This document shows positions 30,425 through 46,049 of a stretch of DNA of 64,000 nt, piece after piece. The notes under the pieces are model-generated. The model had not been told where the DNA came from. It did not search any database and saw only the letters and a program-made list of their open reading frames with translations. The DNA is from a phage. Both the position numbers and the translations under genes were made by a program. Where the stretch lies: the sequence record PZ452594.1; one strand, 5' to 3'. The stretch's first letter is position 1, and every line of letters starts with the position of its first letter.

Positions 30425-30811
30425 TTATTCGAGGGAAAGAAGATACTTACTCTGGTAAAACATTCCAGTAATATCATCTATCGTGCTTTGGATGGCTGGA
30501 GGCATTTCTTTATAAATGCTGTTAGATTGGTCTAGTATGCGATCAATCATTTTAATTGTGTCGGTAGGAAGTTTACTGGCATCTGGAATTGAAGGTGTGT
30601 ATTTTCTACCAGAATACCCCAAATATTGCTCACCAAATTTATCAATCAAATCTGGCAACTCGGAGAAAATAAAATCGTATGCTTTATGTCTAGCATAACT
30701 TTTAGTTTCAAAATGTGCAGAATGAAAATAAGCTTGTGCAGCCATTAATAAACCTAAGTATTCATCTGCCTTTGAAGGTTTTCCACTTTGTGAAAAGTCG
30801 CTGAATTTCAT
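30425..30811 (-). CDS. hypothetical protein (128 aa) immediately downstream of rI
   Basis: ORF track. Confidence 0.5.
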
Positions 30812-31101
30812 TCAGTCTCCAATTTAATGTTCATAATTCTAGCGTATGATTGTGCCATCTCCGCGCCTCGTTCTATACATTCAAAATCAGAAGAGCACGG
30901 GTCATTTTTATAGGTCGTTCTCATAAAACTATAGAATTGTTCAGACGATTCTACGCTTTTATTTTCAAAAAGCATATAAACGTGCCTAATACCAGATTCC
31001 ATAAATTTATCAAAATGAGAATCGACATTCGCTTCAATTGATGGAGATAAAACAAATGACAATCCTAGCATGGCAAAAAGTGCCGTTGCTTTTAAGGCCA
31101 T
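30808..31101 (-). CDS. rI: lysis-inhibition regulator RI (97 aa, signal-anchor N-terminus)
   Basis: MALKATALFAMLGLSFVLSPSIEANVDSHFDKF... matches T4 RI. Confidence 0.85.
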   Translation of the reverse strand: MALKATALFAMLGLSFVLSPSIEANVDSHFDKFMESGIRHVYMLFENKSVESSEQFYSFMRTTYKNDPCSSDFECIERGAEMAQSYARIMNIKLETE

Positions 31102-32322: not shown

Positions 32323-32492
32323 ATATTAATTTCCAAAAGTTTTAAAATAATTCGCTTTTGCTTAAATATTTCCACAGTTAAATGATCAGTATCTTTTTGA
32401 CCAATTCCAATGGCAAAACCTTTATTAACAGCGAGTTCAATTAAATTATCAAGTTCACGTAACACTTCATATTGTAACTCAGAACTATTCAT
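32319..32492 (-). CDS. small protein (57 aa), ATGA-coupled to both neighbours
   Basis: hand-translated MNSSELQYEVLRELDNLIELAVNKGFAIGIGQKDTDHLTVEIFKQKRIILKLLEINI. Confidence 0.35.
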   Translation of the reverse strand: MNSSELQYEVLRELDNLIELAVNKGFAIGIGQKDTDHLTVEIFKQKRIILKLLEINI

Positions 32493-32701
32493 TTCGGTTT
32501 ACCTTCTTTAACGAAATCTGGATAAGGATAAAATCCCGAATAAAATCCTTCACCTTTATGATTGATGCATCCTTTATTAGAACAATAGCACCAATAATCG
32601 AAATCACAAGCCATTTCATCGTTGCATAAAGCAAAAACAACCGGCCATTTACACTTTTCACAGTGGGCATTTTTAAGAATACTAGTTTGGCTCATAACCA
32701 T
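32489..32701 (-). CDS. Cys-rich small protein (70 aa), probable metal-binding
   Basis: HCEKCKW...CNDEMACDFDYWCYCSNKGCINHKGEG; preferred over the overlapping alternative frame 32485..32670. Confidence 0.4.
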   Translation of the reverse strand: MVMSQTSILKNAHCEKCKWPVVFALCNDEMACDFDYWCYCSNKGCINHKGEGFYSGFYPYPDFVKEGKPK

Positions 32702-32919
32702 GTCACCTTTAAGCAGTATTCTTCTACATGCTGTTTACGACCTTTCTTATCAATAAAGGTATATTCAACGAATGTTCCAATGTAGTCTTTATCTACATCA
32801 TGTGGACTATTAATTGGACATTTAGTACGGCAAATGCGTTCCCATTGACGAATAATTACTGCCTTATTCTTTGGGTCATACGGATGTGGATAATGTATAT
32901 TCATAATAACGGTTCCCAA
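32692..32919 (-). CDS. hypothetical protein (75 aa)
   Basis: ORF track. Confidence 0.4.
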   Translation of the reverse strand: MGTVIMNIHYPHPYDPKNKAVIIRQWERICRTKCPINSPHDVDKDYIGTFVEYTFIDKKGRKQHVEEYCLKVTWL

Positions 32920-33368
32920 TCAACAATCACAATTTCTAATTTAGAGGAATATGTATCTAAAATCCCCTCAATAATATCCCAGTTCCCTTTACCTATGCCT
33001 GCACCAATCCTAGGCATATAGATTGTAGGTTTAATCAGTTTATTTTCACCAAACTCATTTAATTCTAACATACAATTCATTAAAGCGGAATACTCAAAAT
33101 TTGGCCCTGGTTGAAATTGAGTATAAAGGTTGAAGCAATACGCTTTATGAGTCCTAAAGTATTTTTCATAGACTGAGTAAGAACCGAGTTTAGTTACATC
33201 ACCCCATTCAGTCTGTAATTTATCAGCTTCCAAAATTTTAGGGAAAGCTTTGGTTAATTGACCTGCGACTCCAGCTTTCATCGCGTGAAAACAATTACAT
33301 CCATGCGCAATATTTTTACCTTCAGCGAAAAGGGCGACAATATCGCCCTTGATATATTTTACAATCAT
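32901..33368 (-). CDS. macro-domain-like protein (155 aa)
   Basis: N-terminal GDIV...NIAHGCNCFHAMKAGVAGQL and C-terminal MPRIGAGIGKG resemble macro-domain Gly-rich motifs; ATG after GAGGA. Confidence 0.45.
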   Translation of the reverse strand: MIVKYIKGDIVALFAEGKNIAHGCNCFHAMKAGVAGQLTKAFPKILEADKLQTEWGDVTKLGSYSVYEKYFRTHKAYCFNLYTQFQPGPNFEYSALMNCMLELNEFGENKLIKPTIYMPRIGAGIGKGNWDIIEGILDTYSSKLEIVIVDWEPLL

Positions 33369-33712
33369 CTAGTACTCAATCCTCGATTATAAGAATCTAC
33401 CAAACGGTCAACCATTGAATGACAAGCGGCTTTATCTTTCTCCTCCGCAACTGAACATTCTAAGGTATTCCACTTTTTAGCATATCGTTTTAATAATGTA
33501 TCGTTTTTGTATCTACTTGATTTATCTCTTTCTCCGTCTTTATATGCATATATTAATTTCTGTGCAAATTCAGCTTGACATGCTTTATTTTTCCCACAAT
33601 AATCTGCCGCAGTGCGGTTTACATATTCTCTAATTTCAGTATATGATGTATCTGCTGATGCAGAAGCAGAAAATGAAATTAATCCTATACATAAAACCAA
33701 AATTTTAGTCAT
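33365..33712 (-). CDS. secreted/periplasmic small protein (115 aa), 4 Cys
   Basis: signal peptide MTKILVLCIGLISFSASASA then polar mature region. Confidence 0.5.
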   Translation of the reverse strand: MTKILVLCIGLISFSASASADTSYTEIREYVNRTAADYCGKNKACQAEFAQKLIYAYKDGERDKSSRYKNDTLLKRYAKKWNTLECSVAEEKDKAACHSMVDRLVDSYNRGLSTR

Positions 33713-34250
33713 TTACTATTTCCAAAAGTTTATTATTTTTAAGGTAATTAGCCTTTTCTAGGACTTCAGAAGCATATTTAGAACCAGCTTTAACATTCCA
33801 TCCCGAATTATAAGAGGATATTGCTTTTCTTATATCGCCCTTATGTATATTTAACCAATAAGAAAGTTCAATGTACGCCCAGGAAGCTGAATTGGATCGT
33901 TTATTCAACATTCTTTTTATTTCAGCATCGGTCATATTATAACCAAGTTCCTTAACTCTTGCTCGCATAGTAGGCAAATAATTTTGGAACATTCCGTAGG
34001 CGTGATGCTTTGGTTTAGATTTTAAATTAACTCCGCCAGAGCTTTCTTGCCATAAAATAGCAGCCATTATATGACCTAATCCGCTCTTGTGGATATTTTT
34101 GTGTGTTTTATATTTTCCATCCTTAGAAAATTGTTCCCCGAATTGATACGCGTAACGCATGTTATCGAGTTGGACATTACTGAAAGTATGCTCGGAGCTA
34201 TGTGCCATCATTGAAATGGCCAATAGACCAGCGAGTAGTGCTTTTCTCAT
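33705..34250 (-). CDS. secreted lytic-transglycosylase-like protein (181 aa)
   Basis: signal peptide MRKALLAGLLAISMMAHS; SLT-type motif AAILWQESSGG...AYGMFQ. Confidence 0.5.
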   Translation of the reverse strand: MRKALLAGLLAISMMAHSSEHTFSNVQLDNMRYAYQFGEQFSKDGKYKTHKNIHKSGLGHIMAAILWQESSGGVNLKSKPKHHAYGMFQNYLPTMRARVKELGYNMTDAEIKRMLNKRSNSASWAYIELSYWLNIHKGDIRKAISSYNSGWNVKAGSKYASEVLEKANYLKNNKLLEIVND

Positions 34251-34257
34251 GCTTACC

Positions 34258-34719
34258 TCATTGAGTTTTAATTACTGCTTTAGAAGCCTTTCCTGGTAAA
34301 CGACGACTGTTGATAATTGCCATCCTACATTGAAGTGACGGGTTTTTGAACTTCTCATTAGGTTTACAAACCGTAAATCCAAGCCAAAGATTTCCATCTG
34401 TAATTTCCAAACGCCCAGGACGATATTCAACCCCATCAATAAAATCCTCGTCAATGTCAGGACGCGGAGGCATACTCAGGAATTCATTAACTTCTAAAAC
34501 ATGGTCTTTTATTTTATGGAATAATTCAAAAACGTATGTCTCATCAATCTCCCGTTGAATTGCGCGATCAAGAAGATGCTGAGAATATTTTAGATGAAAC
34601 GATGAGACTCCTGCTGCTTTTGATGCCTCACGAATCTCATTGTTAATTTGACGAAACTCCGACTCAAAGTGACGACGAAGCTTATTTCGACGGATAAAAA
34701 CTTCTGTATTGATAGTCAT
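34258..34719 (-). CDS. regB: RegB sequence-specific endoribonuclease (153 aa)
   Basis: MTINTEVFIRRNKLRRHFESEFRQINNEIREASKAAG...; size matches T4 RegB. Confidence 0.8.
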   Translation of the reverse strand: MTINTEVFIRRNKLRRHFESEFRQINNEIREASKAAGVSSFHLKYSQHLLDRAIQREIDETYVFELFHKIKDHVLEVNEFLSMPPRPDIDEDFIDGVEYRPGRLEITDGNLWLGFTVCKPNEKFKNPSLQCRMAIINSRRLPGKASKAVIKTQ

Positions 34720-34744: not shown

Positions 34745-34780
34745 AAATTATACCACAGTCAAGAGGAAAAGTAAACAATT
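34745..34780 (-). promoter_or_regulatory. early promoter for regB (GTTTAC, 18 nt, TATAAT)
   Basis: sense GTTTACTTTTCCTCTTGACTGTGGTATAAT. Confidence 0.55.
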
Positions 34781-35057
34781 ATTCTTTAAATCTGATTAAT
34801 TTATTCATAGACTTTGAAACTTCTGCACGAACCTCATGTAAGTTTTTAAGCTGTTCAAGACGCTGTTCATAGTAAGCAATTTCATCTTCTTCGAGACAGT
34901 CCTGTGAATCTTCTTTAAGATAACGTGCATAGTCCTGGAAAGCTTTACGGACTACTTCCTGGAAGTCATCAAGACTTTGAATTTTCTTAGGAGCGGCAGA
35001 TACACGACGAGGGGCAGTATAATACTCATAACCAAACCCTGCACTTAATTGAGCCAT
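34779..35057 (-). CDS. hypothetical protein (92 aa)
   Basis: ATG at 35055-35057 ([13 protein letters not shown]...). Confidence 0.4.
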
Positions 35058-35359
35058 TAGTATTTTTCCTCTGGTTGGAACACAGCACGGCAAGCCCACA
35101 TACTTGCTTCTTTGAGTTTCGTTTTAGCAATAGTTAACTGATCGAGGCTTTCGGCGTAATTCTTCGCGAGTTCATCATCTTCACAGCTATCAAATGCTTC
35201 CCAAAATTCATCGTATAAAGCATCAAAGATAAGTCCTAAACGAACTTCAGCGTCTTTGATAGCATTCACTTTACCGATTTTCTCTTCAGTATGCGGCTTA
35301 TAACCTTTAATGTCTTCAATCATATTTGACTTCCTCACCAGTACATAAATCATATTCAA
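35057..35359 (-). CDS. hypothetical acidic protein (100 aa)
   Basis: ORF track; start uncertain. Confidence 0.4.
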
Positions 35360-42308: not shown

Positions 42309-42770
42309 TTATTTGATTTGTTTAGCAGACCAAATGCGGTCTTTGATGATTTTTTGGAGGTCTTCAACATACTCTAGGTCATGAGCATGTGGATTATCTT
42401 TGAAACTATGAGCTCGCGCAAGTTTCTGGCCTTCGGTCTTAATTATCAAAAGTTCTTTAAGAATTGCTTCATACCTAGAGATAATTCCTTTAGCAATATT
42501 TTTTTCTTGTGCTGCTTTAGGGTCAGCCTTAGGAGCAGGTTTACCAGAAGGTTTTTCGAAAGCCGCACCAGTAGCAACCAGGCTTTTCCAGGCGGTGGTA
42601 ACATAGTTACCCACAAAGCCTTCAGCTCTCATATCGTCATAGAACTTGTACCGAGATTCGTCAGAAGCATCTTTATAAGAATATTTACCAGCTTTAATAG
42701 CAGCAGTTGCTACAGCGCGAACATCTGAAGCGGATGCTTCGGTCATTAAAAATTGAGCATAAGTTTTCAT
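42309..42770 (-). CDS. protein with CTS-like N-terminus (153 aa)
   Basis: begins MKTYAQFLMTEA; ATG at 42768-42770 after AGGAAA; has its own terminator. Confidence 0.5.
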   Translation of the reverse strand: MKTYAQFLMTEASASDVRAVATAAIKAGKYSYKDASDESRYKFYDDMRAEGFVGNYVTTAWKSLVATGAAFEKPSGKPAPKADPKAAQEKNIAKGIISRYEAILKELLIIKTEGQKLARAHSFKDNPHAHDLEYVEDLQKIIKDRIWSAKQIK

Positions 42771-42805
42771 TGTTATTTCCTGTGTTAATTAACTCATCTA
42801 TTTAT

Positions 42806-42837
42806 ACCAAAAAAGCCCCAACCTTTCGGTCGGGGCT
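42806..42837 (-). terminator. intrinsic terminator at the distal end of the tRNA/stable-RNA cluster
   Basis: plus agccccaacctttcggtcggggct preceded by a-run. Confidence 0.6.
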
Positions 42838-42840
42838 AAG

Positions 42841-43153
42841 CCTTGCGGCAACCTTGTCGGGGTTCCACCTGCTAAGGCAAGTGTTTGTACGAAACGCCGG
42901 GATTCGAACCCGGTTATTAAGCAGTTGACGCTACTCAATATTTTTAAAAGGCCATATCTCGACCATATCCGAACGTTCCGTCAAAAACGCTACTCGGCTT
43001 ACGGCAAAGATATTTCCTCGAATCGATAATTCGGTGCGCCGTTTCTGCTGTGATATAAGAGGGCATTAACAAAACATAAAGATTTATTAATGCCAGTCCT
43101 TAAACAGGGAACATCAGTCCGACGACTTACCGGTAGCGACCCGGTTTCTTGTT
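42841..43153 (-). ncRNA. stable small RNA(s) of the tRNA cluster (T4 rnaC/rnaD-like), tRNA-like T-arm
   Basis: no ORF; sense contains CCGGGTTCGAATCCCGG; lies between tRNA-Arg and the cluster terminator. Confidence 0.35.
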
Positions 43154-45863: not shown

Positions 45864-46049
45864 TTATTCACCTTTAGAAATTTTATCCATAACGATAGCG
45901 ATTAAACCAATTAAAAATGCTACTACAAGCGAAAACACATTTTCTGCTGTAGTTAATAATCCGCATATAAATCCAACAAACATTGAAAAACTAAAAGCGG
46001 AAGCAGAAATTGCAATAGCAACATTTCGAATTAATTCACAACGTTTCAT
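45864..46049 (-). CDS. small membrane protein (61 aa)
   Basis: hydrophobic throughout; early promoter upstream. Confidence 0.45.
   Translation of the reverse strand: MKRCELIRNVAIAISASAFSFSMFVGFICGLLTTAENVFSLVVAFLIGLIAIVMDKISKGE

Follow-up and report, generated by a model that had tools for sequence, protein, structure and literature searches.

Can the product of a phage gene that bears the name of a cytoplasmic function, modification of the host valyl-tRNA synthetase (ValRS), work outside the cytoplasm? This question is raised by two adjacent genes, vs.1 and vs, in a stretch of 64,000 nucleotides (nt) of phage DNA (record PZ452594.1), which we analysed at its full length and refer to as the window. 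In our opinion the two genes form an exported two-gene envelope module, and we would put the probability of this at roughly 0.55. The result that seems worth following is the exported look of the vs product in every homologue, since it questions both the label and the current explanation of the phenotype of vs in M9 minimal medium. The genes themselves were named long ago (in the 1980s and 1990s) and the similarity of vs.1 to the SLT transglycosylase domain is already in print, so that the finding of the initial annotation, which described two adjacent secreted proteins, one of them lytic-transglycosylase-like, is an ordinary one. That annotation did not recognise the open reading frames (ORFs) as the T4 genes vs.1 and vs, and it missed the ValRS-modifier label on the shorter of them. 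What is new here is the predicted export signal on every Vs homologue, with a lipobox in phage CC31; the tight adjacency of vs.1 and vs across metagenomic T4-like loci and an Acinetobacter phage; the modelling of mature Vs as a confident four-helix bundle that has no known structural relative; and a fitness cost of both genes in published transposon data, which is not seen for their neighbours.

All genes of the locus lie on the minus strand. The features that carry the argument are the following.

33705..34250, minus strand: vs.1 coding sequence, 181 amino acids (aa), from the ORF list; 100% protein identity to T4 ORF 61.4; PHROG 600, E=2e-68

34197..34250, minus strand: predicted signal peptide of Vs.1, residues 1-18 (MRKALLAGLLAISMMAHS, followed by SEHTF), from the analysis of n-, h- and c-regions

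33365..33712, minus strand: vs coding sequence, 115-aa precursor of 13.1 kDa, from the ORF list; 100% identity to T4 ORF 60.9; PHROG 1256, E=1.7e-39

33653..33712, minus strand: predicted signal peptide of Vs, residues 1-20 (MTKILVLCIGLISFSASASA, followed by DTSY), from the same kind of analysis

33368..33652, minus strand: predicted mature Vs, residues 21-115 (95 aa, 11.0 kDa, isoelectric point (pI) 8.9), modelled as a four-helix bundle, with invariant C39, C45, C86 and C97 and a conserved C-terminal helix C-x-SMVDRLVDSYNRGL

33705..33712, minus strand: overlap of 8 nt between the vs start and the vs.1 stop, ATGACTAA, read from the sequence

There is practically no doubt about the identity of the two ORFs. 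Both proteins are 100% identical to ORF 61.4 (vs.1) and ORF 60.9 (vs) of the 1986 sequence X04567, that is, to T4 P13311 and P13310, and the order regB, vs.1, vs, tk.4 of the T4 annotation is also that of the window. The only difference from the T4 annotation of vs is one of reading: we predict an exported protein where the annotation has a cytoplasmic ValRS binder. Indeed the window as a whole is, by its sequence, that of a T4-type phage. Over the 2 kb around the pair, which are represented in 639 phage records, DNA identity is 99.4% with phage RB18 and 98.2% with T4. Mass spectrometry of T4-infected cells has detected both products, which belong to the class of early RNA and middle protein (PMC9697503 supplement). 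Thus the proposal of two real genes in the early region, with products made before the late period, holds.

We judged signal peptides by rules for the n-, h- and c-regions and by comparison of homologues. The criteria for a Sec signal of the signal peptidase I (SPI) type were a positive n-region, a hydrophobic h-region of 7-15 residues, and small residues at positions -3 and -1. Vs.1 starts with MRK, continues with ALLAGLLAISMMA and reaches its putative cleavage site with AHS, before SE; the n-region has a charge of +2 and the h-region consists of 13 uncharged hydrophobic residues. Vs starts with MTK, followed by ILVLCIGLISF and SASASA, before DT. The predicted N-terminal peptides of the mature proteins are DTSYTEIR for Vs and SEHTFSNVQLDNMR for Vs.1. 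A crude filter for the three regions was passed by five of the 148 window ORFs of at least 60 aa, Vs.1 and Vs included, and among the remaining three is RI, whose periplasmic location is known. The clear signal peptides that had been claimed for both proteins are thus borne out by canonical regions, and these are kept across homologues. An N-terminus of SPI type was present in all inspected Vs.1 homologues, including those of Aeromonas, Acinetobacter, Ackermannviridae and Felixounavirus phages, and an export-type N-terminal signal in 43/43 distinct homologues of Vs, where the character of the signal is kept and its sequence is not. In both families the signal segment is divergent in sequence and the mature part is conserved.

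The most telling case is that of Enterobacter phage CC31 and its relatives, where a lipoprotein signal with a lipobox (LSGC), MKKLFVLLVVFALSGC, replaces the SPI signal of Vs, and the resulting lipoprotein-type Vs keeps the four mature cysteines. The exchange of one type of export signal for another is hard to explain unless the Vs family works outside the cytoplasm. The orthologues concerned (CC31 locus L037, 3049..3375, and loci L038, L041 and L052) start with this canonical lipobox signal, and they are annotated 'valyl-tRNA synthetase modifier'. No internal start codon able to give a signal-less isoform is present in the vs sequence. In the AlphaFold2 (AF2) models the confidence (predicted local distance difference test, pLDDT) is about 55 for residues 1-20 of Vs.1 and below 50 for residues 1-20 of Vs. 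Full-length Vs with an N-terminal His tag was found in inclusion bodies in a published expression screen (PMC8076793); such insolubility is compatible, if weakly, with export. Given these predictions, we consider it very probable that Vs is exported.

How can this be reconciled with the name of the gene? The classical vs function of T4 is that of a polypeptide of about 10 kDa that binds the host ValRS; it acts in vivo and hence must be cytoplasmic. The annotation may be right: the 115-aa product would then be this cytoplasmic ValRS binder, its N-terminus unused or only partly used for export, and its position beside vs.1 a matter of inherited gene order. GenBank, RefSeq and PHROGs agree on the label, and mature Vs, with its 11.0 kDa and pI of 8.9, comes close to the approximately 10 kDa that Muller and Marchin (1977) are said to have found for the ValRS-binding factor. 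Yet if the signal-cleaved form were that factor, it would already be outside the cytoplasm. The ORF has the name in common with the ValRS-modifying factor of the T-even phages (tau), and nearly the size; it differs in that tau must act in the cytoplasm, while the Vs family carries export signals throughout. A signal kept in 43/43 homologues and its exchange for a lipobox in the CC31 group, which is sensible only for an exported protein, do not agree with a cytoplasmic binder; neither does the AF2 model, which leaves residues 1-20 unstructured and off the bundle, nor do four invariant cysteines that are kept even in the lipoprotein variant. Every homologue has a predicted signal, which in some is a lipobox, and the N-terminus of the model is disordered; by these predictions Vs does not look like a resident of the cytoplasm. 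Further, the 1986 record X04567 leaves ORF 60.9 without assignment, and in the retrievable literature we found no primary paper that ties the genetic vs locus to ORF 60.9 or that deals with the localisation of Vs. Based on our analysis, the cytoplasmic label is doubtful and the annotation as it stands is unlikely to be right; that Vs is not the ValRS-binding factor at all is, in our estimate, a statement with slightly less than an even chance.

The other member of an exported module would be Vs.1, for which the relevant features are two.

33789..34070, minus strand: SLT (GH23 lysozyme-like) domain, Vs.1 residues 61-154, from Pfam PF01464, the AF2 model and Foldseek

34044..34046, minus strand: codon of the predicted catalytic Glu69 (W-Q-E-S-S), ttc on the plus strand and hence GAA on the minus strand

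Mature Vs.1 would have about 163 aa, 18.8 kDa and a computed pI of 9.7. Pfam SLT (PF01464) matches it at 25.1 bits, where the curated cut-off is 21.3, with E=1.4e-5, and it matches 24 of 25 Vs.1 homologues (E<0.01), whose identity goes down to 41%; the SLT-type motif noted in the 181-aa ORF is therefore genuine. Glu69 is invariant in the 25 homologues, and the AF2 model has it at the C-terminus of helix 59-70. The same alignment has as invariant residues G86-x-F88-Q89, Y147-N148-x-G150 and Y159, which correspond to the motifs G-[LM]-[MF]-Q and [AS]-Y-N-x-G and an additional tyrosine. None of its aspartates is invariant, as judged by alignment and not by structure-based mapping to D86 and D97 of goose lysozyme. 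As far as sequence allows one to say, the residue pattern is that of a family-1 lytic transglycosylase rather than of a goose-type lysozyme. The model of Vs.1 (pLDDT 88, predicted template modelling (TM) score 0.82) finds MltD, a GH23 chitinase / goose-type lysozyme, Pseudomonas Slt, Slt70 and phi6 P5 among PDB structures by Foldseek, with probabilities of 0.99-1.0, E of about 1e-2 and TM of about 0.5. Sequence searches of PDB with the single protein and with a profile gave noise only, with nothing at E<0.4, and for this reason we regard Vs.1 as a divergent member of SLT. Similarity of vs.1 to SLT was reported by Nolan et al. 2006, who cite earlier PSI-BLAST matches (PMC1524935). Relatives are found by tblastn in 2046 phage records, from Straboviridae of many hosts and, more distantly, from Ackermannviridae and Felixounavirus. 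Motifs, fold matches and the invariant Glu69 all make the 181-aa protein a homologue of lytic transglycosylases, as had been supposed, and we are confident in predicting that Vs.1 is an exported protein of SLT fold. A role as the phage endolysin was considered and rejected, given the early RNA and middle protein timing and the neighbours regB, vs and tk.4; spanin genes occur within 1.5 kb only for the distant Felixounavirus homologue.

Vs is of another kind. It was said to have four cysteines, which is true of its mature part, where C39, C45, C86 and C97 are invariant and where each of the 43 distinct homologues has four; the total in the precursor is five, the fifth being C8, a non-conserved residue of the signal peptide. 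The AF2 model predicts a confident four-helix bundle for residues 21-115, with residues 1-20 unstructured and detached from it. Judged by the helix boundaries of the model, and not by Cys-Cys distances, the four cysteines would all sit at the same end of the bundle. For this bundle no informative structural match was obtained in PDB or among viral models, and sequence searches of PDB (single protein and profile) gave noise only. A search of 5.8 billion proteins returned 13 clusters, which makes the family narrow, and a hidden Markov model scan of 1.84 billion representatives returned seven, none of them similar to anything outside the Vs family. By sequence, then, Vs is a narrow orphan family, with relatives by tblastn in 796 phage records. 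Two metagenomic loci that are otherwise intact have truncated copies with two cysteines each (L022, 3041..3298, 85 aa; L040, 3191..3376, 61 aa); these are probably frameshifts or sequencing errors, or else occasional losses of Vs.

Do the two proteins belong together? We found 50 metagenomic loci in IMG/VR with the alignment of Vs.1 and then looked for Vs-family ORFs by profile search, which is the source of the 43 distinct Vs sequences. A Vs-family ORF lies directly 3' of vs.1 in 49 of these 50 T4-like loci, and so it does in Acinetobacter phage Mokit, whose Vs has diverged too far to be detected by tblastn. The gap between the genes is -8 to +3 nt in all loci except L040 (+141 nt, with the truncated 61-aa copy). 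The flanks vary while the pair stays: over 52 loci, regB is upstream in 43 and tk.4 is downstream in 28. In the opposite direction, vs.1 is present in 23/23 loci found with a Vs query. By sequence, the overlap of 8 nt in the window is an arrangement of translational coupling. In Mokit (L004, 1980..3847) there are five consecutive export-type ORFs: the vs.1 homologue, the diverged Vs (108 aa, four cysteines), ORFs of 141 and 99 aa, and an annotated antiholin rI; judging from the sequences, this run looks like a periplasmic gene block.

The transposon data for T4 point in the same direction. The figures below are mean insertion counts per TA site, taken from published HIDEN-SEQ tables (10.1101/2025.11.20.689424). 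In the reference library on solid lysogeny broth (LB), vs has 103 and vs.1 has 76, and their neighbours have 120-630. Competition in liquid LB leaves 26.6 for vs and 22.6 for vs.1, where the non-essential genes that flank them have 130-770. A further drop is seen in M9 glucose, to 5.0 for vs (log2 fold change -2.19, adjusted p = 0) and to 11.9 for vs.1 (-0.87, p = 0.0055). The fitness cost is therefore common to vs and vs.1 and not shared by their neighbours, and the two behave as general fitness genes, with a stronger effect in minimal medium, and not as exclusion genes. The authors of the screen rank vs first among the T4 genes for fitness in minimal medium, and their explanation is ValRS modification. 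A simple antidote function of Vs towards Vs.1 fits these data poorly, since insertions in vs.1 are as depleted in LB as those in vs, although polarity on vs might account for this. For other genes, the comparison of M9 glucose with LB (Extended Data Table 6, sheet S8) shows a loss of insertions in a-gt (-1.04) and b-gt (-0.64), a gain in dda (+1.71), nrdA, nrdB and td, and an upward trend in regB (+1.17).

It is also conceivable that both proteins are exported but act independently. Vs.1 would then be an accessory enzyme that remodels the wall or assists lysis, and Vs would hit another target in the envelope, for instance a muramidase of the host or of a superinfecting phage, which it would inhibit as Spackle does, or a step of lysis inhibition. 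That would suit the far wider distribution of Vs.1 (2046 against 796 phage records) and its presence in several phage families that have no Vs, the much faster evolution of Vs (mean pairwise distance 0.61, against 0.34 for Vs.1), and the difference between the two responses to M9. T4 already has a small periplasmic lysozyme inhibitor in Spackle (PMC7677548). What independent roles leave without explanation is that in the 23 loci from the Vs query Vs was never found apart from vs.1, that the junction of -8 to +3 nt is kept from Tequatrovirus to Acinetobacter phages in spite of changed flanks, and that the two genes, and not their neighbours, have a fitness cost in common. We consider independent action quite improbable.

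The exported two-gene module therefore remains the reading that we favour, and several points weigh against it. Our calls of signal peptides were made with no trained predictor, and in the searchable literature we found no experiment on export, muralytic activity or contact between Vs and Vs.1. Aeromonas phage 31, the Ackermannviridae (Det7), Felixounavirus (finno) and locus L056 have Vs.1 and no Vs, so Vs is not an obligatory partner of Vs.1. Adjacency alone is weak evidence, because gene order is conserved across the whole region in T4-like genomes. Specific co-evolution of Vs and Vs.1 was not seen in a mirror-tree test, in which RegB served as the control: the correlation of Vs.1 with Vs (r=0.73) is lower than that with RegB (r=0.91), and the partial r is 0.12; this also suits a Vs that is a ValRS binder with an inherited neighbour. 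The scarcity of insertions in vs.1 may come about through polarity on vs. The M9-specific defect of a vs knockout, which is clean and is the strongest such loss in T4, agrees with a translational role under conditions in which amino acids have to be made. The four clustered cysteines could also bind metal in the cytoplasm. Finally, Neidhardt, McClain and Marchin (1966-1980) reportedly established firmly that the T4 vs function modifies the cytoplasmic ValRS in vivo. With all this in mind, we hold a working association of Vs with Vs.1 to be somewhat short of an even bet. The complete statement, that the vs product is not the classical ValRS factor but leaves the cytoplasm, forms disulfides and is a partner of Vs.1, the secreted transglycosylase, we put forward as a tentative one that is rather more apt to be wrong than right.

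The action of the exported module might be pictured as follows. The two genes are read from prereplicative transcripts together with regB, and the start of vs overlaps the stop of vs.1. It is strongly predicted that Vs.1 is exported by Sec and cleaved after AHS18, and that in the periplasm it is a single-domain homologue of family-1 (GH23) lytic transglycosylases with Glu69 as its single catalytic residue. For Vs the prediction is likewise one of export, cleavage after ASA20 and folding into its bundle of 95 residues, where the four invariant cysteines may form disulfides in the oxidising environment. Vs.1 would cut bonds between N-acetylmuramic acid (MurNAc) and N-acetylglucosamine in the sacculus and leave 1,6-anhydro-MurNAc ends, with limited cuts during infection. 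Because of ends of this kind, we infer that it would remodel the wall rather than destroy it. The place of action of Vs would be the envelope, and its simplest role there that of a partner of Vs.1 or of a modulator, be it an activator, a targeting factor or a brake. If Vs does act there, the cytoplasmic label 'valyl-tRNA synthetase modifier' is wrong or incomplete. As to the roles suggested in the initial annotation, namely superinfection exclusion, peptidoglycan remodelling at the injection site and control of lysis inhibition, our results speak neither for nor against them.

Known systems offer partial parallels. With the catalytic domains of family-1 lytic transglycosylases (Slt70, Slt, MltD) Vs.1 shares the lysozyme-like helical fold, the glutamate of an E-S pair, G-x-F/M-Q, S/A-Y-N-x-G and, as far as the alignment shows, the lack of a conserved second acidic residue; it differs in being very divergent and in being a gene of a virulent phage, expressed before replication, and its activity is predicted from sequence and model. 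Specialised small transglycosylases with signal peptides are also known, namely P19 of plasmid R1, VirB1, IpgF/IagB and EtgA. Vs.1 resembles these in having a signal peptide and one SLT domain, with about 160 residues, and differs in having no link to a secretion machine. The T4 lysozymes gp5 and gpe, phi6 P5 (which is among the structural matches) and the SAR or secreted endolysins are, as Vs.1 is predicted to be, phage-encoded cleavers of peptidoglycan. Unlike these virion and lysis enzymes, Vs.1 has a predicted cleavable Sec signal, is of the early-middle class and is not beside holin or spanin genes in T4, a phage already served by gpe in lysis and by gp5 in entry.

For Vs, there is a parallel in architecture with small exported proteins that act on periplasmic muramidases: Spackle (gp61.3), which inhibits the gp5 lysozyme, and Ivy, MliC/PliC and LprI. 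These inhibitors contain cysteines or disulfides, and Spackle is helical. No similarity of Vs to Spackle, Ivy, MliC/PliC or LprI was detected in sequence or fold, and an antidote to Vs.1 is ill-fitting, as insertions in vs.1 are themselves costly. Like Vs, Spackle is made early by T4 (PMC7677548).

The remaining features of the locus are these.

34256..34259, minus strand: GAGG ribosome-binding site of vs.1, in the sequence ...AATGAGGTAAGCATG; X04567 marks a potential rRNA-binding site at the equivalent place

34258..34719, minus strand: regB, window counterpart of the T4 gene

32901..33368, minus strand: tk.4, window counterpart of the T4 gene

30808..31101, minus strand: rI, near the pair, as had been pointed out

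No dedicated promoter stands out 5' of vs.1, promoter-like sites there being no commoner than in shuffled sequence; the best promoter-like site lies upstream of regB (34775..34747). In the window tk.4 encodes a macro-domain protein (Pfam Macro, 24.3 bits), and its T4 orthologue has been named AdfM, which counters the DarTG2 defence system (2025 preprint). The vs.4 orthologue (35057..35323, minus strand) has 88 aa from an ATG at 35323; T4 Vs.4 is discussed alongside the anti-CBASS nucleotide sponge Acb2 in several papers. From tk.4 and vs.4, at least two anti-defence genes flank vs.1-vs. At the tk.3 position (32489..32701, minus strand) an ORF of 70 aa has nine cysteines, including C-x2-C pairs, and its sequence suggests a small zinc-binding protein. 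Elsewhere in the window, short ORFs at 45864..46049 (minus strand, 61 aa) and 42734..42928 (plus strand, 64 aa) pass the crude signal filter; the former, which starts with MKRCELIRNVAIAISASAFSFSMFVGF, looks membrane-associated. In Aeromonas phage 31 (L003, 2605..3296), between vs.1 and tk.4, the place of Vs is taken by a signal-less ORF of 75 aa and an ORF of 146 aa that starts with MKKSIATLIAIGMYGC and appears lipoprotein-like.

What would it mean if Vs is an exported partner of Vs.1 and not the ValRS factor? The label, which has been copied into at least several hundred phage records with a vs homologue (796 by tblastn, many of them labelled), rests on a cytoplasmic function. With Vs at work beside Vs.1 in the envelope, the minimal-medium phenotype of vs would want another explanation. 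A phage modification of host translation that is among the longest known would still be without its gene, and vs.1-vs would be an uncharacterised envelope module that T4 needs for its fitness, in minimal medium especially.

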